A DNA stretch of 64,000 nucleotides from the NCBI RefSeq assembly GCF_050320075.1, contig NZ_CP190018.1; one strand, given 5' to 3'. Positions 1 to 63,136 of the stretch are shown here, one piece after another; positions within the stretch are counted from its first letter, which is position 1, and each line of letters starts with the position of its first letter. The notes beneath the pieces are model-generated. The model saw only the letters and a list, made by a program, of their open reading frames with translations, did not search any database and was not told where the DNA came from. The position numbers and the translations under genes were made by a program. The DNA is from Escherichia coli (GTDB lineage Bacteria; Pseudomonadota; Gammaproteobacteria; Enterobacterales; Enterobacteriaceae).

Positions 1-575
1 GAATTGATTTTAGAACTCGCAGGATTCGCGCTATTACTGGCCTTGTGTGATGTTGTATTGTTCCCTTCGCCCGCTCCAGAATCTCCCCAGGTGGAGAAGA
101 CTAAAAAAGTCTTCTCTGTCAGCAACTTAAACAGTTACCTATTTAATTTGCTTAGGAGTTCTACCATTGTGATCCGCCCTTAGTAACTGTCACGTTAAGT
201 TACACGGTGAGATGACAGTATAACCTAACGTTGGCGGCAGTTGCACCTCTCACACCGCGATAGCACAACGTGAAGATAAAGCCCATCCTGGCATTGTAAT
301 GTCATCGACAGACTGAACACACGCATTTAAGCCCGATGTGCGGCCTTGTGGCTGCGTAAACAGGTTTATGGTGATATTGGTCCTTGCAAACCATATGCAA
401 GCTCTATCAGCGTTTCAGCCACGCTCCCAACGGGTACACGGTTATCCTGATAAGGTGTGATCTTTCTGACAATCTGATGAAGTCGCTACGCTCCCGCTTG
501 TTGCTGTATCACCAACGGGGCTTTATGGTTTCTATTGTCTATAATAATCTCACAATTCCCCTGCATGAGGTTGAT

Positions 576-782
576 ATGACTGTTAGCTACAAGATTACTT
601 ATGAGCATAGAGACGGTGATCAAATTAGAATGGAAGAGGTTTTATTCCATTCAGAGCATGAACCAACAAAAGATGAAATTCATGATGCAGTAAGAAAAGA
701 TACTGTGAGATTTAATTCTCCATCTAATGGAGTAACGGCTGTTTCAGGGTTTAAAGTGATTTCGGTTGTCCCTGTTCCATGA
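576..782 (+). CDS. hypothetical small protein (68 aa); short form of ORF 384..782
   Basis: GAGG Shine-Dalgarno 5 nt upstream of ATG at 576; the longer form starting at 384 has no ribosome-binding site. No recognisable family. Confidence 0.35.
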   Translation: MTVSYKITYEHRDGDQIRMEEVLFHSEHEPTKDEIHDAVRKDTVRFNSPSNGVTAVSGFKVISVVPVP

Positions 783-815: not shown

Positions 816-1136
816 TTACTTCTTAATATCGCCAGTGCATTGATATTCGATAGTCACAAGTGTTTGCATACAACCAGATGAAGAAGGTTGTGAACATTGA
901 GAAGTGAATCCACCAAAAGGCTCGGCTCCTGAATATCCCCAAGCGGCACAACGCGCTTTGGCTGCATTCATGCCTTGTTGTGGATCTACAACAGGGCTTT
1001 CAAACATACCGTAAGAATAACTCATCCTAACTGTGCCGTCTGATTTGCTTCCACCAGTTGGAACGAGTTGTTTTTTTGTTGCACATCCAGAAATAATCAA
1101 TGTTGAAGCAAGTAACAGCATTAAACTTTTGCGCAT
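816..1136 (-). CDS. putative lipoprotein (106 aa)
   Basis: N-terminal signal peptide with lipobox-like LIISGC in MRKSLMLLLASTLIISGCATKK; convergent with 576..782. Confidence 0.6.
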   Translation of the reverse strand: MRKSLMLLLASTLIISGCATKKQLVPTGGSKSDGTVRMSYSYGMFESPVVDPQQGMNAAKARCAAWGYSGAEPFGGFTSQCSQPSSSGCMQTLVTIEYQCTGDIKK

Positions 1137-1788: not shown

Positions 1789-2346
1789 TTACGCTTCCTG
1801 CTCTTTCTTGATACGTTGCACCGTCTGTGTGCTGACACTGAAATCTTTTGCTACGCTCCGAATTGATCCACCATTCGCGAGAGCGGCAGCAATTCCTGCT
1901 CGATCAATTGCTTTTCCATTACCACGTTTTGCTATACGTCCAGCGGCCTTAGCTGCGGCGATCCCTTCACGTTGACGCTCAAGCATCATTTCACGTTCCA
2001 TTTGTGCCACTGCTGCAAGCACTGTGAGCATCATATTCCCTGCGGGAGAGTTCTTCCCTGTCTTAAAGTCTTCTTTATGGAAATGCACAGACACGCCGCG
2101 CTCTGTTAATTGCTCAACCGTTGCCAGTAGGTCGGCTGTATTACGGCAAAGTCGATCAATGCTGTGAACATGCAAAACATCACCTTCCCGCACATAGTTC
2201 ATCATTGCCTCAAACTGTGGGCGCTGGGTATTTTTGCCTGACGCTTTATCTTCAAAGACTTTATCAAGAGTTACTCCAGCTAATTGACGGTCTGTGTTTT
2301 GTTGGACAGTCGATACCCTAATGTATCCAATATTAGCCATTTTCAT
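1789..2346 (-). CDS. serine recombinase (resolvase / DNA invertase family)
   Basis: N-terminal IGYIRVSTVQQ catalytic-serine motif, 185 aa, C-terminal helix-turn-helix-like tail; typical small serine recombinase architecture. Confidence 0.85.
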   Translation of the reverse strand: MKMANIGYIRVSTVQQNTDRQLAGVTLDKVFEDKASGKNTQRPQFEAMMNYVREGDVLHVHSIDRLCRNTADLLATVEQLTERGVSVHFHKEDFKTGKNSPAGNMMLTVLAAVAQMEREMMLERQREGIAAAKAAGRIAKRGNGKAIDRAGIAAALANGGSIRSVAKDFSVSTQTVQRIKKEQEA

Positions 2347-3265
2347 TTTCCTTCTGTGTTGATTTGTGTGTAGTGATTATTGATCGTGTTGATTAGGTGT
2401 GTAAAGGACTTTTTTCACTACGAAATTCGAAGGTTTTTAGTGTGGTGATTTAGCCTGCTTTATCACTACACGTCTTGCATGAGAATCATGTAGTTACATT
2501 TTGGTAAAATTAGCAAGCTATTAAATAGTGTGTTTATTTTGAAAAAATAATTTTTTGTTGCATTAAAGGAAACTTGTTCAATAAATGATAGAACGTTTAT
2601 TGAGCAACAATTTTGCAGTGATGCGCTATATGCCGCATTACATAAGGCTTTGCTGATGATAATGTAAAAGTGAAGAAAGCTAACATTGCTCTTTTAAGCT
2701 ACTTTTCATTGAATTTTTAGTATGGAATTACATAGGGATAAACTATGAATATTCTATGATTTACACGAGATATTCTTGCTGTTTAATTCCGGCTTTGGAG
2801 ATCAGGCATTCGCAAGAATACGCTAACGCGTTGCCTGAAAAGCCATTGCACATAATAGAGGTGAGCGTATAGCGAACTATCAATGTGATCATTGCACGAA
2901 TGATAATGAGTGGATATAGATTCTATATATCGTTAGATTGTAGTTTGATAGTTAATGTGTAATGTAGATTGTATGAGCGTATAGCGAATGTTAGTTAGAT
3001 CAACAACAAACTAACCTTTAAATCTCTTTTATCTTCTCATAGATATGGCTATGCGTAGCAACCGAAGGTTAGCCAATCATCTCTATGCAGCCGTAAGGCT
3101 GTTTTGCATGTAATAGTTGTTTGTTGTTGTTAGACAGTTACCAATTTATAGATCAGAGATAGATGTGAGCGTTGAGCGATACACTAATCATAACAACATC
3201 TTCTTACTTTTTAGTTAGTTGTTAGTAGGTTATTGTTATGCGCGCTATTAGCGCATGTATAAAGG

Positions 3266-3371
3266 TATCATTTTTATCTAAAGGGCTTTAGACATTTTTG
3301 ATACCTTTTTCATCTCTAAAAAAGTGTAATTTTTATCTAAAGGGGCTTTAGACATTTTTTACACCTTTTTC
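3266..3371. repeat. two direct copies of a ~45 bp repeat, each with palindromic core TCTAAAGG(G)CTTTAGA
   Basis: Copy 1 ~3266..3311 and copy 2 ~3327..3371 are near-identical; cores at 3277..3292 and 3337..3353; extra TCTAAAG half-sites near 3412 and 3487. Operator- or iteron-like. Confidence 0.6.
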
Positions 3372-3515
3372 TGTGCAAGACACTTACCAGTGTGCACAAT
3401 ACTTATGCTTTTCTAAAGCCGGGAATTTTTAAGTTTGATTGATCAATTGTTAACTTTAAAAGTTACTTTTAACAATCACTTAGACGATCTAAAGCCGCAA
3501 TTAACATAATATAAG

Positions 3516-3545
3516 TTGACATGCAAGCACTTTTTACCGTATAGT
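3516..3545 (+). promoter_or_regulatory. sigma70-like promoter candidate (TTGACA, 18 nt spacer, TATAGT)
   Basis: Perfect -35 hexamer at 3516..3521, -10 TATAGT at 3540..3545; transcription would start at the 23 bp tandem repeat. Confidence 0.4.
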
Positions 3546-3553
3546 GCGGGTTT

Positions 3554-3604
3554 CCTACCTACCCAGGAAATGAGTTCCTACCTACCCAGGAAATGAGTTC
3601 CTAC
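3554..3604. repeat. 23 bp tandem repeat CCTACCTACCCAGGAAATGAGTT, about 2.2 copies
   Basis: Exact copies at 3554..3576 and 3577..3599, partial third copy (CCTAC) following. Confidence 0.75.
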
Positions 3605-4556
3605 AATACTATAATTAAACTACAATTAAACTATCTTTTATAAATTCTTTTATCTTTTAAAGAATAATTATAGGGATACCCGTTAGGGAGTCTTCGACTA
3701 TCCCTTAATCTATTGGCATTCGCCAGAACCTTGCACAAGTTAGACTGATGCTTGTCATAACAGATAGTTTTTGTTTTTTGTTAGTAGTTAGCTGATCTAT
3801 GTTCGCTTTCCGCTCACAACGAATATGTAATCTACTATGTGCAAATAGCCTACGGCTTGCGTATGGCTAATAGTCTTGCGCTGTGCGCAGAACGATAATT
3901 AACTAACTACCATCTAACGATTGAAATTTACTTGTGCAATAACCTGAGCATAAGCGAATGGTTGTTAGTGTCTATGCGCTGTGCGCTTCAATAGTTCCAT
4001 TGATGAGGCTTACGCCAATCTAACGATCATCAATCTATTTAAGAGAAAATCTATTGTGCAATACTCTGACGAGTGCAATAACCTTGTGTGCTACGCGTTA
4101 GCGATGTTAGCACATAGACACAGACAACAACCAACAACAAACAAAAAAGAAAGAATGGTTTTAGTAGTTGAAGGTTAAATAAGTTTCTACCGCTTAAATC
4201 AAGCCGTAGGCGAGCTAAACGTATATAAGGTAGGGAAACACTTAGCGGTAATAGATTAGCTCGTTATAGAGCTTCTGAGGAGCTTTACAGGTATTTTATA
4301 AGATGTCTGAAATCAGAGTTTATCTATCCACCATCTTTCCATCATCTGATAAATCAAAAATAAGCCCCTTAAATAAGCCTCTGACGAGATAAACAACCTC
4401 TACATAAGGGAATGTATTGTTTTTATCAAAACCCCCGTCAGAGTGCGATTGAGAGCGTTTTAGACAACAGGGAAGAATTGTACCAGAGTAGGCAGCACAA
4501 AAAGCTAAGAAAAATTATAAGAAATTGAAAATGATCAAGTTTTTTATAAAAGAGGG

Positions 4557-4585
4557 TTGACAAAGCCGCCGTTATGTAGTATTGT
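4557..4585 (+). promoter_or_regulatory. sigma70-like promoter candidate (TTGACA, 17 nt spacer, TATTGT) for the plus-strand operon
   Basis: -35 at 4557..4562, -10 at 4580..4585; first ORF of a co-directional gene string starts ~115 nt downstream. Confidence 0.5.
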
Positions 4586-4701
4586 AAGTAGGGAGGGGAG
4601 AAACATCTCTCTCCATCTAAATAATCAAATCACAGAACACTGCACTTTGAGCCGTCAGGCTGCAAGGTGTGTTTTTCTTTTATCTAAATAAGGAGTTTTT
4701 T

Positions 4702-4884
4702 ATGAAATGGTATACACCGGAACACGTCGTAGAGGCATTTAAAAAAGGTGAGCTAACACGACATCAAGTAAGGATGAACAGGAACACAGCGCGGCGCTGT
4801 GGTTATCCAGAGCGTGAAAAATGCTTTGACGATGCACTAAAAATTATTGATGAACTGCGTAAGGCAGAAGCAGAGAAAGAATAA
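4702..4884 (+). CDS. hypothetical small protein (60 aa)
   Basis: AGGAG 6 nt upstream of ATG 4702 (MKWYTPEHV...); first gene after promoter 4557. Confidence 0.5.
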   Translation: MKWYTPEHVVEAFKKGELTRHQVRMNRNTARRCGYPEREKCFDDALKIIDELRKAEAEKE

Positions 4885-4907
4885 TAACAGGAGAAGGAGA
4901 AAACCAA

Positions 4908-5084
4908 ATGAATATTAATTTTGATTCTGCAACTTATAACGCGTTGTTAAATCGTGCAAAGGCAGAAGGGAAATCAATTCCAAAACTTGTTAATGAATTA
5001 CTAATTACAGTCCTTACAAAGGAGGAACTAAATGAACCAAAACACCAAAACAATTGCCGAAGCAAAAGCGCAATGCCTCAATAA
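4908..5084 (+). CDS. ribbon-helix-helix-like small DNA-binding protein (58 aa), not in ORF track
   Basis: GGAGAAGGAGA before ATG 4908; MNINFDSATYNALLNRAKAEGKSIPKLVNELL resembles CopG/Arc-type RHH N-terminus; 3-prime end overlaps the next gene by 53 nt in another frame. Confidence 0.45.
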   Translation: MNINFDSATYNALLNRAKAEGKSIPKLVNELLITVLTKEELNEPKHQNNCRSKSAMPQ

Positions 5085-5697
5085 GAAAGATAGTAAACAA
5101 ACATATGTAGTAGTTGAACAATGGCTGAAGATGTTTAAAAAGTGGTTCTCACCGTCAGGTAAGGAATACACCGCGACACTTCCAGCCGTTGAAATCTACA
5201 GTTACGTAGCTGGGTTCAATGAACAAGGGCAAGAATGTTACGCCAATCAAAAAACATTAGCTAATATTGGAATGGTTAGTGATCGTCAGGTGCGTAATAT
5301 TATAAATATGTTTATTGATATGGGTGTTCTTTCTGTAGAGGCACGGGACGGGCAAACATCACTCTATAAAGCATTACCCTTTACAGATGCACACATCACA
5401 CCACCGGAAGACGTAAAAACCTCTGTAAACGTAGAACAGCCTGCACCTGAAACACAGGAACCGTTAGAAGCGACACACTCTATTGAGCAGGAAACACAGG
5501 CAGAAATCACGGAACAATCTGATCTTTTTACATGGCTTATTTCCATAGACAGCCAAAAGCCTATGCAAGAAGAAACAGAAAATTTTATAAAACGTGCACT
5601 GACCTCGAAGAGGATAATTCTTGAAGATGATGCTTTTAATGCACTGATGATAGCCCTGAGAAAAGAAAGTGAAATCTATGACTCAATACCATTTTAA
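5032..5697 (+). CDS. hypothetical protein with winged-helix-like N-terminus and acidic C-terminus; possible replication initiator or organiser
   Basis: Strong AAGGAGGA before ATG 5032; segment ANQKTLANIGMVSDRQVRNIINMFIDMGVLS resembles winged-helix DNA-binding domains of phage/plasmid Rep-type proteins. Assignment is by resemblance only. Confidence 0.45.
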   Translation: MNQNTKTIAEAKAQCLNKKDSKQTYVVVEQWLKMFKKWFSPSGKEYTATLPAVEIYSYVAGFNEQGQECYANQKTLANIGMVSDRQVRNIINMFIDMGVLSVEARDGQTSLYKALPFTDAHITPPEDVKTSVNVEQPAPETQEPLEATHSIEQETQAEITEQSDLFTWLISIDSQKPMQEETENFIKRALTSKRIILEDDAFNALMIALRKESEIYDSIPF

Positions 5698-5709
5698 GGA
5701 GAATAAAAA

Positions 5710-5967
5710 ATGAAATACAACCTGACATTAAACAAACGAACATTCGAAATTACAGAAAGCGGCTACACACTGGCAAAACAGCTTGCTGATAGCAATTATG
5801 AGCTACCCGCGATTATCAGCTTTCAGGAGTTACCTCATAGTAAAGAACACACACAGCACTGGTTAAATCACCTGAGCCATTTTGGGGTAATTAAGTATGA
5901 GGCTGTGAATAGTCAGACGTTCCGTTTGCTTGAGATAAGCCCTTTCGAATTGTGGGTGGCGCTGTGA
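5710..5967 (+). CDS. hypothetical protein (85 aa)
   Basis: ORF track; GGAG upstream; co-directional operon member. Confidence 0.5.
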   Translation: MKYNLTLNKRTFEITESGYTLAKQLADSNYELPAIISFQELPHSKEHTQHWLNHLSHFGVIKYEAVNSQTFRLLEISPFELWVAL

Positions 5968-6170
5968 CCATATTCGATAGCGAATTTTCACAAGAAACCT
6001 TTCTGCAATATTTACGGGAAAGAACGGGAATGATTCTGTTTGATTCTGAGTTTTCCGGTGTGGTAGGTGAGCAATTTTTATATGCTCTTCTCGATAGCCT
6101 AAGTAAACAAGGATTATTGCAGTATACCAAAACTCATATGAAAGCATTCAGAATCGACTCTGTAGCTTAA
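5952..6170 (+). CDS. hypothetical protein (72 aa, GTG start) with internal FDSEFS...FL.Y.L duplication
   Basis: ORF track; start codon is GTG overlapping the upstream stop; internal ~45 nt direct repeat at DNA level. Confidence 0.3.
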   Translation: MGGAVTIFDSEFSQETFLQYLRERTGMILFDSEFSGVVGEQFLYALLDSLSKQGLLQYTKTHMKAFRIDSVA

Positions 6171-6206
6171 AACAAACAACTATCAAACATCTTGAAGGGT
6201 GAAACA

Positions 6207-6347
6207 ATGGAAAGCTTAATATTTTTCTTAGTATTTATGATCGCTTCCTTTTTTAACACTGCAACAAGAAAAACAAAACGAAGGGGAAGCAATGAGCAAG
6301 AAAAAAGGCAAGAAAAACGTAATAACAACTATTGGCGAAGCATGTGA
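6207..6347 (+). CDS. candidate small single-pass membrane peptide (46 aa), not in ORF track
   Basis: ATG 6207 after AAGGG; MESLIFFLVFMIASFF hydrophobic helix then a basic tail (RKTKRRGS...); overlaps the start of ORF 6292 in another frame, so only one of the two may be real. Confidence 0.25.
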   Translation: MESLIFFLVFMIASFFNTATRKTKRRGSNEQEKRQEKRNNNYWRSM

Positions 6348-6672
6348 TCAGTATGCGTTAAACAATCCTCGCAAATATAATTATGAGCATGATGCACAAC
6401 CAGGCGAGGAATTGATCTTTATACTTGAAGAACCAAGCCCAGAATTAACAGACGAAGAATTATCACTCATTCAAAGTATGGACGGTGTTTACTTTAATCC
6501 GCGCCCACGCAAAACAACGGTTATAGATTCCAGTCTTCTGAAAAGATGGCAGTGTTTGGGTTTTCAGGATATGCACCACTTTAGGGGGTATATGGCTCTT
6601 AACAGTCTGCAATATGCAGGGGTGAGAGAAACCGAATTACTTCTGCTTGATAAAATAAAAATCGACGATTAA
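6292..6672 (+). CDS. hypothetical protein (126 aa)
   Basis: ORF track; AAGGGGA 5 nt upstream of ATG. Confidence 0.5.
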   Translation: MSKKKGKKNVITTIGEACDQYALNNPRKYNYEHDAQPGEELIFILEEPSPELTDEELSLIQSMDGVYFNPRPRKTTVIDSSLLKRWQCLGFQDMHHFRGYMALNSLQYAGVRETELLLLDKIKIDD

Positions 6673-6713
6673 CAGCGTTTGCTGAATATAACCCTTAACA
6701 AAAGGAAAATAAA

Positions 6714-6935
6714 ATGATTAACAAAGCAATTTTAGAGACAACCACTTTTCACGATCTTAAACTTCTTTCTGAATGCTTCATAAGCCTGATTGAACGTGCA
6801 CAGGAAGAAAACGATCTCGGTTTACTCGATGATATTATAGACAACATTGCAACTTATAAAATCCCGCTCACTATTGCTATGAAGAAAGCTCGTGAAGCAC
6901 AACAACAATTAGAACAATCAGAGGAAGTGGCATAA
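6714..6935 (+). CDS. hypothetical protein (73 aa)
   Basis: ORF track; AAGGAAA before ATG; co-directional. Confidence 0.45.
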   Translation: MINKAILETTTFHDLKLLSECFISLIERAQEENDLGLLDDIIDNIATYKIPLTIAMKKAREAQQQLEQSEEVA

Positions 6936-7243
6936 TGAGCGAAGTACACAACGTAACTATTGAAATGATGGATCTGGTTATTGATTTACAGAAAGCAGTA
7001 AACGCGGCTCTGACTTTTCCAAGCGAGCTAACCATCACACAGGCGGTTATTAATCTGGAATCGACGCGGGAAGCACTGCAACTACTTATTGCAGCGTGCG
7101 AAGAGAGCGAAGGTGCACAGATTGAAGCTGATGACCTTTCTAATCTGATCATCGTCATTCATGACACCACTGAAATCATGAAAGAAGCGGTAGCAGATCT
7201 GCAACCCCTCATTAATGAATTAATCGATAAGGCTAACAACTAA
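6935..7243 (+). CDS. hypothetical acidic protein (102 aa)
   Basis: ORF track; start overlaps upstream stop (ATAATG), suggesting translational coupling. Confidence 0.5.
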   Translation: MSEVHNVTIEMMDLVIDLQKAVNAALTFPSELTITQAVINLESTREALQLLIAACEESEGAQIEADDLSNLIIVIHDTTEIMKEAVADLQPLINELIDKANN

Positions 7244-7452
7244 TGTCAAAAACTAAACGTGTGCGCCTTCTGGCGCTCACAGAAGAAGGGAAAGCGGGTA
7301 ATTGTTTCACAGTAGGTAAAGTGTATACCGGCTTACTCGACACTTACACCCGCCTGATGCACGTAACCGATGATAACGGTAACGATCAAACAATCGTTTT
7401 AGATGGTAATTGCGTATTTGGTGAGTGGGAACTGACAACCGAAAAAAGTTGA
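7243..7452 (+). CDS. hypothetical protein (69 aa)
   Basis: ORF track; start overlaps upstream stop (TAATG). Confidence 0.5.
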   Translation: MSKTKRVRLLALTEEGKAGNCFTVGKVYTGLLDTYTRLMHVTDDNGNDQTIVLDGNCVFGEWELTTEKS

Positions 7453-7471
7453 AAATAATTGCATTTACCTA

Positions 7472-7500
7472 TTGACTTTTACTAACAGAAATGTTAGAAT
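7472..7500 (+). promoter_or_regulatory. near-consensus sigma70 promoter (TTGACT, 17 nt spacer, TAGAAT)
   Basis: -35 at 7472..7477, -10 at 7495..7500; followed by ~820 nt without any ORF of 60 codons or more on the plus strand. Confidence 0.55.
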
Positions 7501-7506
7501 AATAAA

Positions 7507-8291
7507 TGTTGGGTTTGGAATCGAAAATAGGTGTTAGCTGGCGTTAATCCTTCTCCCGATTCTAATCCTACACGAAAGCGGGGTAGACCTCAAGGGGTCG
7601 CGCCCTATCTAACCTATCCCGCTTTCCCTTTACAGTGATTTTTTAGAAATTGTTTCCCTCGTTAATAGTTTCATTTTATTTTCCTTATTGCTTTATCAAA
7701 ATTGTGTCTTAAGAATGCAGGGGCTACGGATTTGGCCCCTCATCTTTTTAACCAACTGCGAAGCATGAAACACTTTCTAAAAACACTGTTTACAGTGTCT
7801 ATAAACCCCGTATAAACAAATAACGGTGTATATCTGTTTCTTGACAACAGTTTTCTACTAAGCTTAAAGCTGAATATGTTTTTGTTTGTTGGTGTTTATT
7901 AAGGTGCCAATCTTAGAACGCGAAAGCGTGGATGATCCCCGAAATCATCTCGGCACCGCCTCCTATTAAAATGAGAATCCAAAAGGTTTGAAAGTTAATA
8001 GGTGATTCCTGAAAGTCTGATCGATGCATCCACATTGTGAAAGACAGCGATTAGCCGTCGCACGAATAACAGGTTTATAGATTCCTCTCCAAAGGGGGCG
8101 ACCTCCTAAGCGCCTACTCCCTGTAAGCCTGTTATTCACCCCTCAAGGGTATATAACAATAAGCAATCTTATTCTTATATGTCCTCCTCTTTAAGTTCAT
8201 ATAAACTGCGATTTAGTAACACTCTATAACATCCTTCAAATGTTGTATTCATAAAGCCGGAAGCTTTCCCCTTCCGGTTTTATTTTTATCA
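7507..8291 (+). ncRNA. candidate structured leader or noncoding RNA region
   Basis: ORF-poor; stem-loops at 7575..7626 (GAAAGCGGG / CCCGCTTTC), 7719..7749 (AGGGGC, 10 nt loop, GCCCCT then T-run) and 8065..8136 (AATAACAGG / CCTGTTATT); ends at terminator 8257..8291. Boundaries and function are inferred. Confidence 0.3.
8257..8291 (+). terminator. rho-independent terminator-like hairpin (CCGGAAG, loop, CTTCCGG, then T-run)
   Basis: Inverted repeat with following TTTTATTTTTAT, just upstream of the 8331 ORF. Confidence 0.5.
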
Positions 8292-8330
8292 GCACTAAAC
8301 AAGACTGTTAGGAATAAAGGTAAAGCAATA

Positions 8331-8546
8331 ATGCAAAATCTCATTCTAAAGAATGGTAACGAAGAATTGGTTATCACTGATGAAACATTCAATGCTACGG
8401 CTTATATGCTGGGGATCACTCCCACAGAATTGAAAAAACATTGTGATAAGCTTTTTAAGTCTGCTGATGAACAGAAACCTACTATGCAGGATCTGATTAA
8501 AGCAAAAGCAGAACAAATCAAACAATCCAAAAAAGGAAACTATTAA
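8331..8546 (+). CDS. hypothetical protein (71 aa)
   Basis: ORF track; immediately precedes the capsid-like gene pair. Confidence 0.5.
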   Translation: MQNLILKNGNEELVITDETFNATAYMLGITPTELKKHCDKLFKSADEQKPTMQDLIKAKAEQIKQSKKGNY

Positions 8547-8548
8547 TT

Positions 8549-8920
8549 ATGGCTATTATTAATATGAGCGATCTGTTTCCAGTTCGCAAATCATTTACCG
8601 ATATCGTTTCATATGCAACTGATGAGTTCGGTTGTGTGCAATCTTTTACCGTTGATCTGGCGGTTGATGTTGAATGCGGCGATCTGATTACCAGTGACGG
8701 CGCTGAATATGTAAGCGGCGGCGATGTTCTTGTAGTTGTGTCTGATGCGGTATCCGCTGGCGACGCTAAAACCGTTAACGTGCTGCGTAGCAATGCCGGA
8801 CTGGTTTGCATCAAGTCCGATGCTCTGAATGTTGAAGGCGCTGTGAAAGAAGCTGCTATTGCTGCCCTGGCTGCAAAAGGTTTCCAGATGGCTGGTTTTA
8901 ACACTGTATTCACATCTTAA
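8549..8920 (+). CDS. putative virion structural protein (123 aa), possibly head-decoration-like
   Basis: Small Gly/Ala/Val-rich protein directly upstream of and coupled to the 342 aa gene; codon usage is strongly biased toward highly-expressed E. coli codons. Resemblance to a lambda D-type decoration protein is by size and arrangement only. Confidence 0.4.
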   Translation: MAIINMSDLFPVRKSFTDIVSYATDEFGCVQSFTVDLAVDVECGDLITSDGAEYVSGGDVLVVVSDAVSAGDAKTVNVLRSNAGLVCIKSDALNVEGAVKEAAIAALAAKGFQMAGFNTVFTS

Positions 8921-8938
8921 TATAAAGGAATAAAAATA

Positions 8939-9967
8939 ATGATTATTGGTAATGAATCCGTCGATCTGGCTCCGCTGTTTAGTCTGCACGACTCTCGCAA
9001 CTTCCTGTTAACTTCTCTCGACTTTACTGATCCGGTAGGTGTGAGTTCTCATAAAGTGGCTGTTAGCCAACTGGTGGAAACTAACGAATCTCTGTTCAAC
9101 AAAGAAACCTCTCGTTTCTCTTCTGAACATAACGTGACTAAACGTGAACAGGGTAAAGAATTTTTAGTAGAGATCCCCTACTTCCTGCGTGAAGATATGA
9201 TTAAGCCGCAAGACGTGCAAGGCAAACGTAAACCAGGCGCTACCGTTGAAGAAACTCTGACAGATATCTACGCGGAATATGTTGCTAAGCACCACATTGC
9301 TTTCCAGCGTACTAAAGAAAGCGTGCTGGCTGCTTCCCTGTTCTCTGGTCGCACTTACACCCCTAAAACTGATGATGTGCTGATCCAGTGGGGCGATCTG
9401 TTTAGTGTTGTTCCGATGACTGCAACCATCGACGCATCAAGCACCACGCCTTCTATGGTGTTCCAGCAATTCGATCAGATGCATACAGACGTTATTACTA
9501 AAGCACAAAGCCAGGCGGCTGCTGTAGAACGTATCGTTGTATTCTGTAAACCTGCTGCTTTCAACGCTATCCGTTACAGTGCTGGCATGGTTAACGCGTT
9601 CCAGTATGCAAGCCCTACCGATGACGCAAACATCGTTTATAGCGTGCGCTCCCTGCTGCCAGGTGTGACTACCTTCACTATTCCTGGGACTAACATCGAT
9701 ATCGTTAAAGTTACTGATCCGCTGCTGCTGGCTCATATGACTTCTGATGCGGTTGCTGTTCCGAAGTTCGCTAAAGGCTCTAACGTCTATCAGAACATTT
9801 TCAGCGCTCCTTCTTCAACGTTCGACCTGCTGAATTCTGGCGCGGCTGAATATTACAGCTATGCGTTTAGCCCAGCACGTAACGACGCTGTAAACGTAGT
9901 TACTGAGAATAGCCAGATGGTTGTAAACCACGGCGTAGGCTTCACTGTACAGATCACAGTAGCGTAA
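8939..9967 (+). CDS. putative major capsid-like protein (342 aa)
   Basis: Size and position (after a ~120 aa protein) resemble a lambda D/E-type head gene pair; AAGGAA RBS; codons strongly optimised (CGT, CTG, TCT, AAC, GAA) unlike neighbouring genes. Not confirmed by homology. Confidence 0.45.
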   Translation: MIIGNESVDLAPLFSLHDSRNFLLTSLDFTDPVGVSSHKVAVSQLVETNESLFNKETSRFSSEHNVTKREQGKEFLVEIPYFLREDMIKPQDVQGKRKPGATVEETLTDIYAEYVAKHHIAFQRTKESVLAASLFSGRTYTPKTDDVLIQWGDLFSVVPMTATIDASSTTPSMVFQQFDQMHTDVITKAQSQAAAVERIVVFCKPAAFNAIRYSAGMVNAFQYASPTDDANIVYSVRSLLPGVTTFTIPGTNIDIVKVTDPLLLAHMTSDAVAVPKFAKGSNVYQNIFSAPSSTFDLLNSGAAEYYSYAFSPARNDAVNVVTENSQMVVNHGVGFTVQITVA

Positions 9968-10120
9968 TAAAGCGTTAATAGTCGTTTCCTGTGCGACTGG
10001 AAATAAAACAGGCAATAAGGGCAAAAGGGATTATTAAACCTGTAGCGCAAATACAGTAAACAATCTCTTTTGCCCTTTTTTCGTTTATACCGTCTATTAA
10101 AATATTGTGAGAGAAAAATC

Positions 10121-10312
10121 ATGAGCGAACAAAACAACAATCCAGTTGAGATCCTGAAAGCTGTTTCCACCTTACCGGAAGATATTCTGAATATCTCTCA
10201 AGTGTGTAAGTTTTTAGGGATCTCTAATACTGCTGTACGTCAAAGAATCTTCACTACTGGCTGCTCAGCTATGGAAGCAGTGCAATACTACGTAACAAAA
10301 CAAAACAAATAA
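10121..10312 (+). CDS. hypothetical small protein (63 aa), possible HTH
   Basis: Internal ATG of ORF 10070..10312 (MSEQNNNPVEIL...); segment ISQVCKFLGISNTAVRQRI is helix-turn-helix-like. Confidence 0.35.
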   Translation: MSEQNNNPVEILKAVSTLPEDILNISQVCKFLGISNTAVRQRIFTTGCSAMEAVQYYVTKQNK

Positions 10313-10330
10313 AAGGTAAAGGAAAATATT

Positions 10331-12172
10331 ATGGATTTAAACATCTCAACCTTAACAAACAAGGTTGTATTTAAAGTTGATTTTGCATCATTACAGAAAG
10401 CAAGGGACGCAGGGAAGAAATTTCAGAAAGAAATGGAAAACCTAACCAATCCAACATTGAAAGGGAAGAAGGCTAAACGAGCTATAGACGAGGCTCATGA
10501 TCTGGTAAAGGCTCGTAAAGCTGCACAGGCTAAAACTGATGCCAAAGCGTCAGACAAGCAAGCTCAAACCGATAAGAAGAACGCTGATAAGGTGGCAAAG
10601 GCAGAAGCTAAAGCGAAGGCTAAAGCCGCTATAGCTGCCGATAAACAGATCCGCGCTAAAGCGACAATAGCAGAGAAAGCAGAGATTAAGCGCCAGCAAG
10701 CTTTCAGACAGCTTGAAGGGATTAAGAAAGGGCGTATGGGCGACGGTATGGACTCCGCCCAATACTACAAAACGTTGCAATACATCAAAGCACAAACGGC
10801 AGCGTATGAGAAAGGCGCTATTAGTCAGGCTAAGATGAATCACCTGATCCGTGATCGTATCACGTTAGAACGCCGTGCGGCTGCTGTAAAAGCTCGCCAG
10901 GTGGCGGCTGATGGCGGTAAATATCCACATATGGCTAAACAGCTTAAAGGCGGTCATATAGGCGGTGGTGTAGGTGCAATGGTGGGCGGTGCCGCTCTCA
11001 CTGCTGCCACTCTCGGCGGTGCTGCGATATTCAATACCGTAACCGATCAGGCAAGCAAGATCACAGACACTAACCGCAAGGCAAAGGCTGTCAACGTAAA
11101 CACTAACGCCCTGTTAGCACTTAATCAGTACGGCTTAGAACACGGTGTCGATAGTTCCGTAGACCAACGTCAAGACAACCTTAAAGACGTTCAAGAGCGT
11201 TTAGGTGAATCCGTAGGGAATACCAAATGGGACGCTAAGAAAGGTCGCTGGGCTGGCGGTAATGGTGCCGTCGATAACATCCTTAATAAATATGGTTGGA
11301 GTCCTGAACAGATTAAAGGTTTCCAGACTGATCCATTAGGTTTCCTGGGCGCTGTAGTGAAAGAAGGAGAACGCCGTGGACTCTCTGATCAGGAGCAGGG
11401 TCACATCCTTGAAGACCTTGGAAATGATTTACAATATTTCCGTGGTGCTTTCAGTCGTAACGGTGAAGAGCTAAATAAAACCATCGTTAAGATGCAAAAA
11501 GCCAATGCCACCTATGCGCAAGCGGATCTTGACGCTGCTGAACGTCTGCAAGCTGTACAGGCTAATATGAATATGGCCTGGGAAGGTAGTAAGAAAGCTA
11601 TCATGACGGGATTCGGTGAAGAGTTCGACGCTCAGGCTGGTGAAGAGTGGGCGCAAATGTTGAAAGATCTCAATCCTCTGTTTAAAGAACTTGGAAGCTC
11701 AACGGCTGAAATGATGAGCGCCTTTGCTGGTGCTGTATCGTGGCTTACTGCTGCATACCAGAATATAAATCCAGAGAACAAACATGAAAACCTTGATTCG
11801 TCCGGTATGTATTATAAGGATTCGTTTGTAGGCGGCATGGTTGATTGGGGTCGTAGTGCTTTAGGCTTATCGCCTATCCCTGGCACGGAAGACAAGCCAA
11901 CGACTGGCGGAACTGCAATTCAGAACTATTCAAGCCCGTCCGATAACGTGCAATCCCTGAAAGAGAACGTTAGCCGTGATCTGAACACTACCCCATCTAT
12001 GACGTATGCGCCAAGCATTGTCGTAAACGTGCCAGAAAGTAAGGTTGATGTGAATATCGCTCCTGATGGTAGTCAGCTTGGATCATACCTCGATTACAAA
12101 GTGGGAAGTATCCAACAAGATTTTGAACGTAGTTTCACGTTGGCGGCTCTGTCTGGGCAAGCACCAAGTTAA
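10331..12172 (+). CDS. large coiled-coil / glycine-zipper protein (613 aa); tape-measure-, scaffold- or DNA-pilot-like
   Basis: Lys/Ala-rich coiled-coil stretch (KAKAKAAIAADKQIRAKATIAEKAEIKRQQ), then glycine-zipper hydrophobic segment GGHIGGGVGAMVGGAALTAATLGGAAIF. Function inferred from composition only. Confidence 0.5.
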   Translation: MDLNISTLTNKVVFKVDFASLQKARDAGKKFQKEMENLTNPTLKGKKAKRAIDEAHDLVKARKAAQAKTDAKASDKQAQTDKKNADKVAKAEAKAKAKAAIAADKQIRAKATIAEKAEIKRQQAFRQLEGIKKGRMGDGMDSAQYYKTLQYIKAQTAAYEKGAISQAKMNHLIRDRITLERRAAAVKARQVAADGGKYPHMAKQLKGGHIGGGVGAMVGGAALTAATLGGAAIFNTVTDQASKITDTNRKAKAVNVNTNALLALNQYGLEHGVDSSVDQRQDNLKDVQERLGESVGNTKWDAKKGRWAGGNGAVDNILNKYGWSPEQIKGFQTDPLGFLGAVVKEGERRGLSDQEQGHILEDLGNDLQYFRGAFSRNGEELNKTIVKMQKANATYAQADLDAAERLQAVQANMNMAWEGSKKAIMTGFGEEFDAQAGEEWAQMLKDLNPLFKELGSSTAEMMSAFAGAVSWLTAAYQNINPENKHENLDSSGMYYKDSFVGGMVDWGRSALGLSPIPGTEDKPTTGGTAIQNYSSPSDNVQSLKENVSRDLNTTPSMTYAPSIVVNVPESKVDVNIAPDGSQLGSYLDYKVGSIQQDFERSFTLAALSGQAPS

Positions 12173-12228
12173 TGATAAAGAGAATGTTTAATCACCATTT
12201 AAAACACTCTTATAAGGAATTAAGCATA

Positions 12229-12259
12229 TAAGAGGCTCCCATTACAAGGAAGCCTCTTT
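12229..12259. terminator. bidirectional terminator-like hairpin between convergent 613 aa gene and integrase
   Basis: Inverted repeat AGAGGCT(CC) ... (GGA)AGCCTCT flanked by A/T-rich runs. Confidence 0.4.
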
Positions 12260-12279
12260 ATTGCGCCTATGGCGTTGTT

Positions 12280-13441
12280 TTAAGCCTTAAAATCAATATT
12301 TAATTCATATCTTACTAATTCTACATATTCAGCTAATTCTGGAATGCTTGCCCCTTGTGAGTAGGTGCGAAAGGCTTCTGTTTTAGCTCTCTGCTCTGTA
12401 TGTCCGGTAATGGCACCGATCCGCTGTTCAGGCACTCCGGCACGATCAAGACAAGTGATAAACATCCCGCGCAAGCTGTGAAAGCATTGTCTATTTGTAG
12501 CGATTGGCAAGACGCTACGACGTAAACGTGAGAACGCTTGAGAATAGAACGGGCCTTTCTTACCGTCGATTCTTTTTACTTTGTTCGAGTGAGGGAACAA
12601 ATATTCACCATAATTATGATTTAAATATTCATCGACAATAATCGATAGTCTCGAATGTATCGGAACGTGCCTGATCCCTGCTTTAGTCTTACTTTTGCTG
12701 ATATAAAAACAGCGTATTCCTTCCACAGTTACAACCTCTGACTTTTTCAGACTTGCCAGTTCGTCTAATCTGCATCCTGAAAACAAGCCCATTAAAATAA
12801 TATTTCTGATCTCCGGCTCCGCTGCATCAAGTAGCTTTTGCATTTGTTCAGGTGTAAACGGTTGATAACTCTCGATTGTGCGACGTGCTTCGAGATTATG
12901 ACCGTGAAAAGGGTTACTGTCTGGTATTCCGTCATAACGGCGTTTAGCAAATTCATAGAGCGATCCTAAGCATGTAAGCCAGTTTTGACGAGATTGATCG
13001 GCTGCTCCTCGTTGCTTCTGGTCATCTAAGAATACTGTTACAAGCCGTCTGCCTATTTTCTCAATATGAATATCATCTTTCTGAATGCTTTGTAAAAATA
13101 GCTCAACGGCCCTTGCTGATTTCTGTAGTGTTGAGTATGAACGACGCTCTCTGTAGCATTCGGCGTATTCGTCACGTATTAAGCATAGGGAAGGCGATGC
13201 ATAACCGCGTTTTACGGCTCTTTGCGTGTTTTTATTGGCCCTTGCCTCTGAATGTAAGGATTCAATAGCTTGTTGTAACCTCCTTTCGGGGTTATCAGGA
13301 TTATGTTTCCGCTTTAGTTCCTCCCATTCTAATAATAGATGGTTTCTGAATCTTCTCGCCTCATTCAGATCTCGTGTAGATGTGCTTTTTCTCCACAACT
13401 TGTAAGGGTAAAGATGACGTAAGTATTTAGGAACAAAAATC
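12280..13441 (-). pseudogene. tyrosine recombinase / integrase with 5-prime end disrupted by IS1
   Basis: C-terminal catalytic motifs of tyrosine recombinases (R in GCRLDEL, HSLRGMF, GHTEQ...FRTYSQG). The ORF's first 5 codons (to 13455) lie inside the IS1 inverted repeat, so the native start and promoter are missing. Confidence 0.8.
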
Positions 13442-13496
13442 GGTGATGCTGCCAACTTACTGATTTAGTGTATGATGGTGTTTTTGAGGTGCTCCA

Positions 13497-13772
13497 GTGG
13501 CTTCTGTTTCTATCAGCTGTCCCTCCTGTTCAGCTACTGACGGGGTGGTGCGTAACGGCAAAAGCACCGCCGGACATCAGCGCTATCTCTGCTCTCACTG
13601 CCGTAAAACATGGCAACTGCAGTTCACTTACACCGCTTCTCAACCCGGTACGCACCAGAAAATCATTGATATGGCCATGAATGGCGTTGGATGCCGGGCA
13701 ACCGCCCGCATTATGGGCGTTGGCCTCAACACGATTTTCCGCCATTTAAAAAACTCAGGCCGCAGTCGGTAA
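13497..13772 (+). CDS. insA: IS1 InsA
   Basis: 91 aa product matches remembered IS1 InsA ([32 protein letters not shown]...). Confidence 0.95.
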
Positions 13773-14194
13773 CCTCGCGCATACAGCCGGGCAGTGACGT
13801 CATCGTCTGCGCGGAAATGGACGAACAGTGGGGATACGTCGGGGCTAAATCGCGCCAGCGCTGGCTGTTTTACGCGTATGACAGGCTCCGGAAGACGGTT
13901 GTTGCGCACGTATTCGGTGAACGCACTATGGCGACGCTGGGGCGTCTTATGAGCCTGCTGTCACCCTTTGACGTGGTGATATGGATGACGGATGGCTGGC
14001 CGCTGTATGAATCCCGCCTGAAGGGAAAGCTGCACGTAATCAGCAAGCGATATACGCAGCGAATTGAGCGGCATAACCTGAATCTGAGGCAGCACCTGGC
14101 ACGGCTGGGACGGAAGTCGCTGTCGTTCTCAAAATCGGTGGAGCTGCATGACAAAGTCATCGGGCATTATCTGAACATAAAACACTATCAATAA
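13691..14194 (+). CDS. insB: IS1 InsB reading frame (expressed as InsAB by frameshift)
   Basis: 167 aa ORF overlapping insA in the -1 frame, typical IS1 organisation. Confidence 0.9.
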
Positions 14195-14478
14195 GTTGGA
14201 GTCATTACCCTTTGGCTATGAATAATTCTGATTTGACGAATCCAGAGGACTTATAGATCACTGTCTCCGGTTTAATAACTTGAATATAATCTAATTCTAA
14301 TATTTTAAACGCCTAATGATTTTTCAACACGGGTGTTATTCTGCTTACGCAAAAATTTTATTTTTAATTATATTTCATTATTATTTCATCAATGTATTCT
14401 TTGGATTTTGCTTATAATAATAATGGAAGGGATGATTATAAATGAATGCGTTATTGCATTTACACTCAGGATGAATAT

Positions 14479-29087: not shown

Positions 29088-29798
29088 GCACAGAAAACCC
29101 CCAGCTAGGCTGGGGGTTCCGGAAAGCTTTCAGCTTTGAGCCAGTTATTCAAACCCCTTTTGATTTGTTAAAACACCTTGCGGTCTGGCAACTGCAAGTG
29201 TCAAACAAGAAATCAAAAGGGGGTCCCAATGGGGGACGAAAAGAGCTTAGCGCACACCCGCTGGAACTGTAAATATCACATAGTTTTTGCGCCGAAATAC
29301 CGAAGACTGGCGTTTTACGGAGAGAAGCGTAGGGCGATAGGCAGTATTTTGAGAAAGCTGTGTGAGTGGAAAAGCGTACGGATTCTGGAAGCAGAGTGCC
29401 GCGCAGATCATATCCATATGCTTGTGGAAATCCCACCCAAAATGAGCGTATCCGGCTTTATGGGATATCTGAAAGGGAAAAGCAGTCTGATGCTTTACGA
29501 GCAGTTTGGGGATTTGAAATTCAAATACAGAAACAGGGAGTTCTGGTGCCGAGGGTACTATGTCGATACGGTGGGTAAGAACACGGCGAAGATACAGGAC
29601 TACATAAAGCACCAGCTTGAAGAGGATAAAATGGGGGAGCAGTTATCGATTCCATATCCGGGCAGCCCGTTTACGGGCCGTAAGTAACGAAGTTGAATGC
29701 AAATGTCAGATCGTATGCGCCTGTTAGGGCGCGGCTGGTAACAGAGCCTTACAGGCGCATTTGAAAAACCTCCGGCTATGCCGGAGGATATTTATTCG
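29088..29798 (+). mobile_element. IS200-like insertion element (IS200/IS605 family), boundaries approximate
   Basis: Subterminal hairpins at both ends (AAAACCCCCAGCTAGGCTGGGGG at 29098..29116; AAAACCTCCGGCTATGCCGGAGG at 29769..29787) flank a Y1 transposase gene; ~710 bp. Confidence 0.7.
29229..29687 (+). CDS. tnpA: IS200 transposase TnpA (HuH/Y1 family)
   Basis: 152 aa from MGDEKSLAHTRWNCKYHIVFAPKYRR; HIHMLVEIPPK HuH motif. Confidence 0.9.
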   Translation: MGDEKSLAHTRWNCKYHIVFAPKYRRLAFYGEKRRAIGSILRKLCEWKSVRILEAECRADHIHMLVEIPPKMSVSGFMGYLKGKSSLMLYEQFGDLKFKYRNREFWCRGYYVDTVGKNTAKIQDYIKHQLEEDKMGEQLSIPYPGSPFTGRK

Positions 29799-62840: not shown

Positions 62841-62917
<77 letters not shown>

Positions 62918-62949
62918 TCACCGTACTGCTTTATTTCATCAAATTTGAT

Positions 62950-63026
<77 letters not shown>

Positions 63027-63059
63027 TCACCGTACTGCTTTACTTCATCAAATTTTAAT

Positions 63060-63136
<77 letters not shown>

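Follow-up and report, generated by a model that had tools for sequence, protein, structure and literature searches.

A codon-adapted capsid gene pair in Escherichia coli as the likely head module of a small integrative phage satellite

What would a chromosomal island of Escherichia coli produce in quantities that call for the codon usage of ribosomal proteins? The question is raised by two adjacent genes in a 64,000-nucleotide stretch of contig NZ_CP190018.1 (assembly GCF_050320075.1), which was analysed as a whole and is referred to below as the window. An initial annotation of the window had noted in both genes the codon set of highly expressed E. coli genes, and in their sizes and tight arrangement a resemblance to the lambda D/E-type decoration and major capsid pair; it proposed either an abundant virion protein tuned to the host or an abundant non-phage protein embedded in a mobile element. 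Here, computation was used to establish what the two genes are, how their products are predicted to fold, how strong their codon bias is and whether they are under purifying selection, and also to trace the boundaries and genes of the surrounding element and its recent exchange of genes with phages. The two genes very probably encode a decoration protein and a major capsid protein that are highly expressed. They sit in an element of about 13.6 kb at the tRNA-Gly gene glyU, not in a prophage, and the best explanation of the observations as a whole, which we consider likely, is that they supply the head proteins of a small phage satellite that integrates into the chromosome.

The gene pair consists of two intact open reading frames (ORFs) separated by 18 nt:

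8549-8920, plus strand: decoration gene, 123 aa, intact ORF
8939-9967, plus strand: major capsid gene, 342 aa, intact ORF

Codon usage and predicted folds of the gene pair

The codon adaptation index (CAI) was computed against 29 E. coli K-12 ribosomal-protein, EF-Tu and EF-G genes, which themselves score 0.556-0.836. Both genes of the pair fall inside this range (0.590 for the 123-aa gene and 0.644 for the 342-aa gene), above the 12 other island genes (0.24-0.48) and above the core genes of the window (32 genes, averaging 0.372 and reaching 0.519 at most). The contrast with the surrounding small ORFs that the initial annotation had drawn by eye is therefore borne out, and so is its list of preferred codons (CGT, CTG, TCT/TCC, AAC, GAA and AAA): arginine is encoded by CGT (9) and CGC (4) and by no other codon, AGA and AGG included; leucine is encoded by CTG in 26 of 30 cases and serine by TCT 16 times and TCC 5 times; AAC is found 15 times versus 6 for AAT, GAA 18 times versus 3 for GAG, and AAA 16 times versus 4 for AAG; and there is no ATA codon.

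To obtain an expectation for the CAI, synonymous codons were redrawn 2000 times for the unchanged amino-acid sequences, with the codon usage either of the flanking island genes or of the core genes. Flank usage gave 0.383 +/- 0.036 for the 123-aa gene and 0.356 +/- 0.021 for the 342-aa gene; core usage gave 0.407 and 0.404, and the highest of these draws reached 0.527 and 0.474, respectively. The observed values lie more than 5 standard deviations (123-aa gene) and more than 10 standard deviations (342-aa gene) above expectation, and with neither background did any of the 2000 draws attain them. Amino-acid composition therefore does not account for the bias. An accident of amino-acid content or local GC is for this reason extremely improbable as the source of the pattern. 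The pair does have a GC content (0.465 for the 123-aa gene and 0.471 for the 342-aa gene) above that of most small neighbours, but the tape-measure gene downstream shares the GC of the capsid gene (0.471) and yet has a CAI of only 0.416, and the same two genes stand out in a related phage, anhysbys, of the phAPEC8 type. In anhysbys the decoration and capsid genes score 0.629 and 0.653, the sheath gene 0.507 and most others about 0.3, a match that fits the pair being the highest-copy virion proteins. The capsid gene is likewise the most codon-adapted gene in diverged relatives of the element (CAI 0.49-0.54).

The genes are also under purifying selection. Comparison with an allele of 94% identity gives a dN/dS of 0.069 (capsid gene), 0.256 (123-aa gene) and 0.077 (the 71-aa gene that precedes them), and values across the late genes of the element are 0.07-0.26. 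The need for hundreds of copies per particle within a short burst is the likely explanation of codon usage at the level of ribosomal proteins, and codon adaptation would then have led correctly to the virion proteins that a small element needs in the largest amounts.

The 342-aa protein matches Pfam PF03864 (Phage_cap_E; E 3.9e-11, residues 25-340 on model positions 20-328 of 329), phrog_29 (major head protein; 2.8e-11) and solved capsid proteins, including Phi92_gp124, and is already labelled 'major capsid protein' in RefSeq. Its AlphaFold model (pLDDT 81.2) was compared with known structures by Foldseek, and the top 30 matches are all phage capsid proteins (best TM 0.60-0.70); the HK97-fold capsid proteins of phiTE, ICP1, Sf14, Bas63, Chi/YSD1 and lambda (gpE) are among the matches, and encapsulins turn up among the distant ones. 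Sequence and model together place it among the lambda gpE-family major capsid proteins, with a predicted HK97 fold. Its closest relatives in cultured phages, mostly of the Stephanstirmvirinae type with some Pseudomonas myophages, share 24-26% identity with it, and none is closer than 26%.

The 123-aa protein models with a gpD/SHP-like fold. It has no sequence match in Pfam (including PF02924), NCBIfam, PHROGs or PDB, comparison with the phAPEC8-type decoration protein was negative by both BLASTP and hhalign, and the family to which it belongs is confined to Enterobacterales and annotated as hypothetical throughout. Its gene lies directly upstream of the gpE-type capsid gene, an arrangement found in anhysbys too. 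The predicted fold identifies it as a putative gpD-like head decoration (cement) protein, a name that is new for this family, though unsurprising.

The lambda-like pairing proposed earlier is thus supported by a family match for one protein and by modelled folds for both, the structure prediction suggested at that time having returned an HK97-type capsid fold with lambda gpE among its matches. The accompanying remark that neither protein carried a clear sequence signature holds for the 123-aa protein but not for the 342-aa protein. Of the two options originally offered, it is the abundant virion protein tuned to the host that is supported.

The element at glyU and its links to virulent myophages

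The boundaries of the element are seen most clearly in E. coli strain H3, in which it is flanked by a 22-nt direct repeat, TCGATTCCCTTCGCCCGCTCCA, identical to the 3′ end of tRNA-Gly. The two copies of this attachment (att) repeat are 13,559 bp apart, the second just beyond the integrase gene. In the window, the left junction retains most of the repeat and the right end has been damaged by an insertion sequence; positions 4000-14000 are 100% identical to the chromosome of E. coli strain YZLc1-3. In addition to the gene pair, the copy in the window comprises the following features:

61-78, plus strand: left end of the element, with 18 nt of the 22-nt att repeat (glyU 3′ end) retained
525-782, plus strand: 85-aa hypothetical protein, variable left-arm cargo
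816-1136, minus strand: YecR-family lipoprotein, left-arm cargo
1789-2346, minus strand: serine recombinase/DNA invertase, left-arm cargo (phrog_125 DNA invertase, 3.8e-62)
2347-4701: ORF-poor, repeat-rich region of 2.35 kb, candidate origin or regulatory region
4702-4884, plus strand: 60-aa protein, conserved family-wide at 73-87% identity
4908-5084, plus strand: 58-aa probable ribbon-helix-helix regulator (weak regulator matches in PHROGs)
5032-5697, plus strand: 221-aa winged-helix (HTH_36) putative replication initiator (Pfam HTH_36, replication-initiator PHROGs)
5710-7452, plus strand: six small genes, 85, 68, 126, 73, 102 and 69 aa
7453-8330, plus strand: ORF-free 880-nt leader of the capsid operon
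8331-8546, plus strand: 71-aa gene, ending 2 nt before the decoration start codon
10121-10312, plus strand: 63-aa helix-turn-helix protein (weak excisionase or DNA-binding matches)
10331-12172, plus strand: 613-aa tape-measure homologue
12280-13441, minus strand: tyrosine integrase, about 20 N-terminal codons and the promoter lost
13442-14209, plus strand: IS1, truncating the integrase

This is a discrete integrative element with an integrase, far smaller than a phage genome. Searches of its ORFs against NCBIfam, PHROGs and Pfam detected no portal, terminase, protease, sheath, tube, baseplate or lysis gene; neither terminase, portal, tail and lysis genes nor remnants of them, as expected of a prophage, were found in these ORFs, and no pseudogene fragments of other phage genes were seen. 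The largest unassigned protein has 126 aa, which is too small for a portal or a terminase; its gene is kept throughout the family. PADLOC returned no defence family in the element beyond one weak, implausible ZorA match.

Several genes tie the element to a single group of phages, the Stephanstirmvirinae (phi92 and phAPEC8 types), which are virulent myophages of about 150 kb. The 613-aa protein matches phrog_16051 (2e-64) and Phi92_gp134 (1.3e-46) and is 29% identical to the tape-measure protein of anhysbys over 476 aa. All 134 phage records that match it are Stephanstirmvirinae-type genomes of about 130-160 kb, with identities of 29-33%. In most relatives of the element a tube-initiator homologue (5.7e-79 versus Phi92_gp135) is added after the tape-measure gene; its closest phage relatives are again Stephanstirmvirinae, at 48-61% identity, with remoter matches in other phages. 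The 69-aa gene has phage homologues in Stephanstirmvirinae only (Phapecoctavirus type, 43-44% identity).

Nucleotide comparison points to recent contact. A search with window positions 2300-8548 against 50,697 phage records gave 8 matches, all of them in Stephanstirmvirinae, at 90-96% identity. The 58-aa ribbon-helix-helix protein, whose ORF is absent from the RefSeq annotation and overlaps the start of the initiator gene, shares 91% of its amino acids with bas60_0101 of the lytic phage PaulScherrer, and the DNA is 95-96% identical, also in Justusliebigvirus VEcB. Residues 30-143 of the 221-aa initiator are 75% identical to the second DNA-binding domain of gp094 of phage muut, with DNA that is 91% identical. 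The phage counterparts of both genes are accessory genes, and on these sequence identities recent gene exchange between the element and these lytic phages is apparent.

The muut protein is itself a chimera. Encoded at 2130-3128 of the muut stretch examined, and present also in phages inny, Mt1B1_P17 and BI-EHEC, gp094 is a protein of 332 aa in which two HTH_36 domains are followed by a C-terminal endonuclease domain of the MUG113/T5orf172 type (GIY-YIG superfamily). Its first DNA-binding domain and linker resemble the initiator of a second E. coli subtype of the element (46% amino-acid identity overall, with 22 consecutive identical residues), and the DNA of this first part is 98.5% identical to that initiator gene over 67 nt. 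Its second DNA-binding domain resembles initiators of the type found in the window, at 75-86% amino-acid and 91-97% nucleotide identity. The chimera indicates, to judge from these identities, very recent recombination between elements and lytic phages, and it fits a relation of parasite and helper. In ICP1, the protein Gp88/Odn joins a domain like the PLE initiator to a T5orf172 nuclease and cuts the origin of the satellite PLE (PMC8263062). By analogy with Odn, gp094 is a candidate origin-directed anti-satellite nuclease.

Family, control regions and surroundings

The element in the window belongs to a widespread family. The decoration-capsid pair is present in 396 of 5426 complete E. coli genomes (about 7%), always on the chromosome and in at most three copies per genome, and the compact gene order is common to E. 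coli, Klebsiella, Citrobacter, Enterobacter, Cronobacter, Serratia, Pantoea and further Enterobacterales contigs. The second E. coli subtype, of about 12.3 kb, is inserted precisely within srsR. A relative in enterotoxigenic E. coli (ETEC) lies at glyU and has a left arm with different genes and a small tyrosine recombinase; both the left arm and the replication module are exchanged between members of the family. Other positions are steadier: relatives carry a gene of similar size in the place of the 71-aa gene, and all of them carry a gene of 60-67 aa in the place of the 63-aa helix-turn-helix gene. Between subtypes whose capsid proteins share 76%, the identity of the tape-measure protein falls to about 25%, a divergence that suggests helper matching or an arms race. 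Beside a diverged copy in another E. coli we observed a further integrase gene and, after it, genes for a reverse transcriptase of 542 aa (RVT_1) and a protein of 246 aa (10100-13627 of that stretch), a locus that may be a retron or DRT-type defence island.

A Pantoea-type relative takes another form. Three independent metagenomes each yielded it as a circle of exactly 14,035 bp, and it was never met on a longer contig; it has genes for a ParA-like protein, a small tyrosine recombinase and the decoration, capsid, tape-measure and tube-initiator module, and Pantoea sp. B623 contig JANUXM010000001.1 represents the same type. Such circles may be how the family exists as an episome. The E. coli-type contigs that measure about 13 kb, by contrast, are not circular and include neighbouring DNA.

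Two regions of the element are candidates for its control. The region 2347-4701 contains an iteron of 23 nt (3552-3597; strain H3 has 3.3 copies), 59/60-nt repeats at 3258-3371 and three copies of the motif ATCGTTAGATKG, which is found nowhere else in the window; three of its blocks (2544-2766, 3549-3630 and 4321-4702) have been kept in diverged members of the family. It is likely the origin or control region of the element. The capsid operon leader has a strong sigma70-like promoter (7472-7500), contains terminator-like hairpins at 7719-7740 and 8251-8283, and is predicted to fold far more stably than shuffled sequences (z -3.96 and -6.57). It is 93.7% conserved in the ETEC allele and missing from the diverged subtype, and ORF-free regions gave no Rfam match at gathering or E<=1 thresholds. 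This structured leader may be a regulatory RNA or an antitermination switch. As for signals common to element and phage, a search for a packaging site or late-promoter motif found 12-13-mers shared at chance level only, and the structural operons of the phages use plain sigma70-like promoters.

At the right end of the copy in the window, comparison with H3 and L3_E36 shows that not only the right att repeat is gone on the IS1 side but also the ETT2 genes between a glycoside hydrolase gene and ygeK. At the left end, positions 1-60 and the DNA upstream belong to a different inserted element, with a hypothetical-protein gene of about 2.7 kb; a second element thus lies between tRNA-Gly and the island, and the two stand in tandem at glyU. 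A search of window positions 1-26000 for tRNA genes was negative. Farther along the window, an IS200/IS605 tnpA between araE and ygeA (about 29229-29687) and three tandem tRNA-Met genes between amiC and mltA (62841-63136) are ordinary for their chromosome region.

Competing readings and known systems

If the pair is the head module of a satellite, its life cycle would run as follows. Infection by a Stephanstirmvirinae-type phage would trigger excision of the element, which would then replicate from its repeat-rich region by means of its own winged-helix initiator. The capsid operon would be transcribed at a high level to form the element's own small capsids, stabilised by its own decoration protein, and portal, terminase/packaging, tail and lysis functions would be borrowed from the helper phage. 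By comparison with the capsids of P4, SaPI and PLE, an HK97-type shell for a genome of about 13.6 kb would be roughly T=3-4. The tape-measure and tube-initiator homologues suggest that the element may also intervene in tail assembly. Dependence on a helper, assembly of small capsids and the role of the tape-measure homologue are inferred here. That phages of the Stephanstirmvirinae type are the helpers seems reasonably likely to us. A broader proposal, for which the chances appear evenly balanced, is that these elements constitute a previously undescribed Enterobacterales satellite family of 12-14 kb with its own capsid, decoration and tape-measure proteins and often a tube initiator, that they parasitise phi92/phAPEC8-type myophages, some of which answer with an Odn-like nuclease, and that the leader may be a new RNA late switch.

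Could the two genes instead be left-over head genes, without function, of a decayed temperate phage? The small number of virion genes, with no terminase or portal detected, and the visible IS1 damage to the copy in the window are what such a remnant would show. The same compact architecture of 12-14 kb, however, recurs with intact ORFs across genera and integration sites; the att repeats are intact in other strains; circular copies of 14,035 bp exist; and low dN/dS together with ribosomal-protein-level codon adaptation speaks for genes in use. With neither a cultured-phage capsid protein closer than 26% nor pseudogene fragments of phage genes in the element, decay is an improbable origin. Helper-free existence, as a self-sufficient plasmid or virus-like replicon whose shell serves as a nanocompartment or a gene transfer agent-like particle, is more improbable again, even though the Pantoea-type circle carries a ParA-like partition gene and encapsulins occur among the distant fold matches. 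The best fold and sequence matches of the capsid protein are gpE-clade phage capsid proteins, paired here with a gpD-like cement protein; homologues of tape-measure and tube-initiator proteins would be meaningless without a contractile tail, and the element encodes no such tail; and none of its unassigned proteins is large enough for a portal or terminase.

A more serious contender, though still an unlikely one, is an anti-phage interference island that is never packaged and overproduces capsid, decoration and tape-measure proteins as poison or decoy subunits. It would account for homologues that point to one phage group (save for the remoter capsid relatives in Pseudomonas phages), for the high expression implied by the codon bias and for a chimeric phage nuclease that resembles a counter-measure, and known satellites protect their hosts too (PMC8263062). 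At about 25% identity between the capsid proteins, however, poisonous co-assembly is unlikely, and the selection acting on a decoration protein that matches the capsid suggests that shells really form and mature. The integrase, the att sites, the replication module and a size that stays at 12-14 kb speak for a mobile unit that is packaged, no known defence family was matched, and interference and transfer can in any case coexist. None of these alternatives covers together the constant size, the intact att sites, the purifying selection, the codon adaptation of the shell genes and the exchange with a single group of phages, all of which the satellite explanation accommodates.

Several observations nonetheless weigh against a satellite. 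Its induction, packaging and transfer are predictions from sequence. No portal, small terminase subunit, scaffold or protease gene was detected in the element, and with a capsid protein only about 25% identical to that of the presumed helper, its shell would have to work with a foreign portal and scaffold; the decoration protein, for its part, shows no sequence similarity to the phAPEC8-type decoration protein. A tape-measure protein of its own, with a tube initiator in relatives, is not explained for a satellite. The muut gp094 protein could be an ordinary homing endonuclease that chanced to acquire its two DNA-binding domains, and the circular Pantoea-type form with its ParA-like gene could simply be a plasmid. 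Matches in IMG/VR are predicted prophages of isolate genomes only, with none from viromes. The copy in the window, having lost the right att site and the start of the integrase to IS1, is probably immobile.

A literature search found no description of the element or of any satellite of Stephanstirmvirinae, although its coverage of subscription journals was incomplete and novelty is thus unproven. To our knowledge, these elements would, if they are satellites, be the first satellite type to carry a tape-measure gene. Phages of the phi92 and phAPEC8 types are broad-host-range coliphages, often isolated against avian-pathogenic E. coli and E. coli producing extended-spectrum beta-lactamases (ESBL). 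If the satellite explanation is true, an element found in about 1 in 14 E. coli genomes exploits or blocks such phages, which would affect the outcome of phage therapy as well as gene transfer.

Among known systems, the gene pair itself is closest to the lambda gpD/gpE head module (PF02924/PF03864), which occurs also in phiTE, Sf14, Bas63, Chi/YSD1 and phi92/phAPEC8. As in that module, a small decoration gene immediately precedes a capsid gene whose product has about 340 aa and no delta domain, the predicted folds are gpD-like and HK97, and both genes are the most codon-adapted of their genome. Unlike in the lambda module, the decoration protein here has no gpD Pfam match and no portal, protease/scaffold or terminase genes lie alongside.

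The element as a whole shares features with several kinds of satellite. It departs from the classical definition of PICI, PLE and PICMI satellites, which have no capsid gene of their own, in that it encodes both a capsid and a decoration protein. In this respect it is like the cf-PICIs, small integrative elements of Enterobacteria that have their own capsid protein and take part of the virion from a helper. Those elements possess all the genes for head formation and packaging (small terminase, portal, protease and head-tail connectors) and are not known to have tail genes. The element described here differs in having decoration, capsid and tape-measure genes (with a tube initiator in relatives) and phage relatives that are virulent myophages, and none of the cf-PICI markers (portal, protease, small terminase and head-tail connectors) was found in any of its ORFs in NCBIfam, PHROGs or Pfam. 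P4 is likewise an integrative E. coli satellite of 11-14 kb; it encodes Psu, which decorates the capsid, and it is packaged in small capsids, as we propose for the element. P4, however, uses the capsid protein of its helper, resized by Sid, and homologues of psu, sid, delta and the alpha primase/helicase were absent from the element's ORFs in PHROGs and NCBIfam. The Streptomyces satellites MulchMansion and MiniFlayer are reported to encode encapsidation genes of their own (PMC10690885); their hosts and genes are unrelated to those considered here, and they are described as being without replication genes, in contrast to the initiator-like gene and iterons of the element.

A parallel in way of life is offered by PLE and its helper ICP1. 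PLE too is a small integrated island with a virulent myophage as partner, and the predicted capsid fold of the element is closest to a clade that includes the ICP1 coat protein (8g1r). In both systems the phage carries a chimera of a satellite-initiator DNA-binding domain and a nuclease of the T5orf172/GIY-YIG type, the activity of gp094 being predicted. Unlike the element, PLE has no capsid gene and remodels the coat protein of its helper by means of an external scaffold, and the two gene repertoires share no homology. If the satellite explanation is true, these elements and their phages would be a second independent case, after PLE and ICP1 in Vibrio, of a virulent-myophage satellite in an arms race with an origin-directed nuclease.

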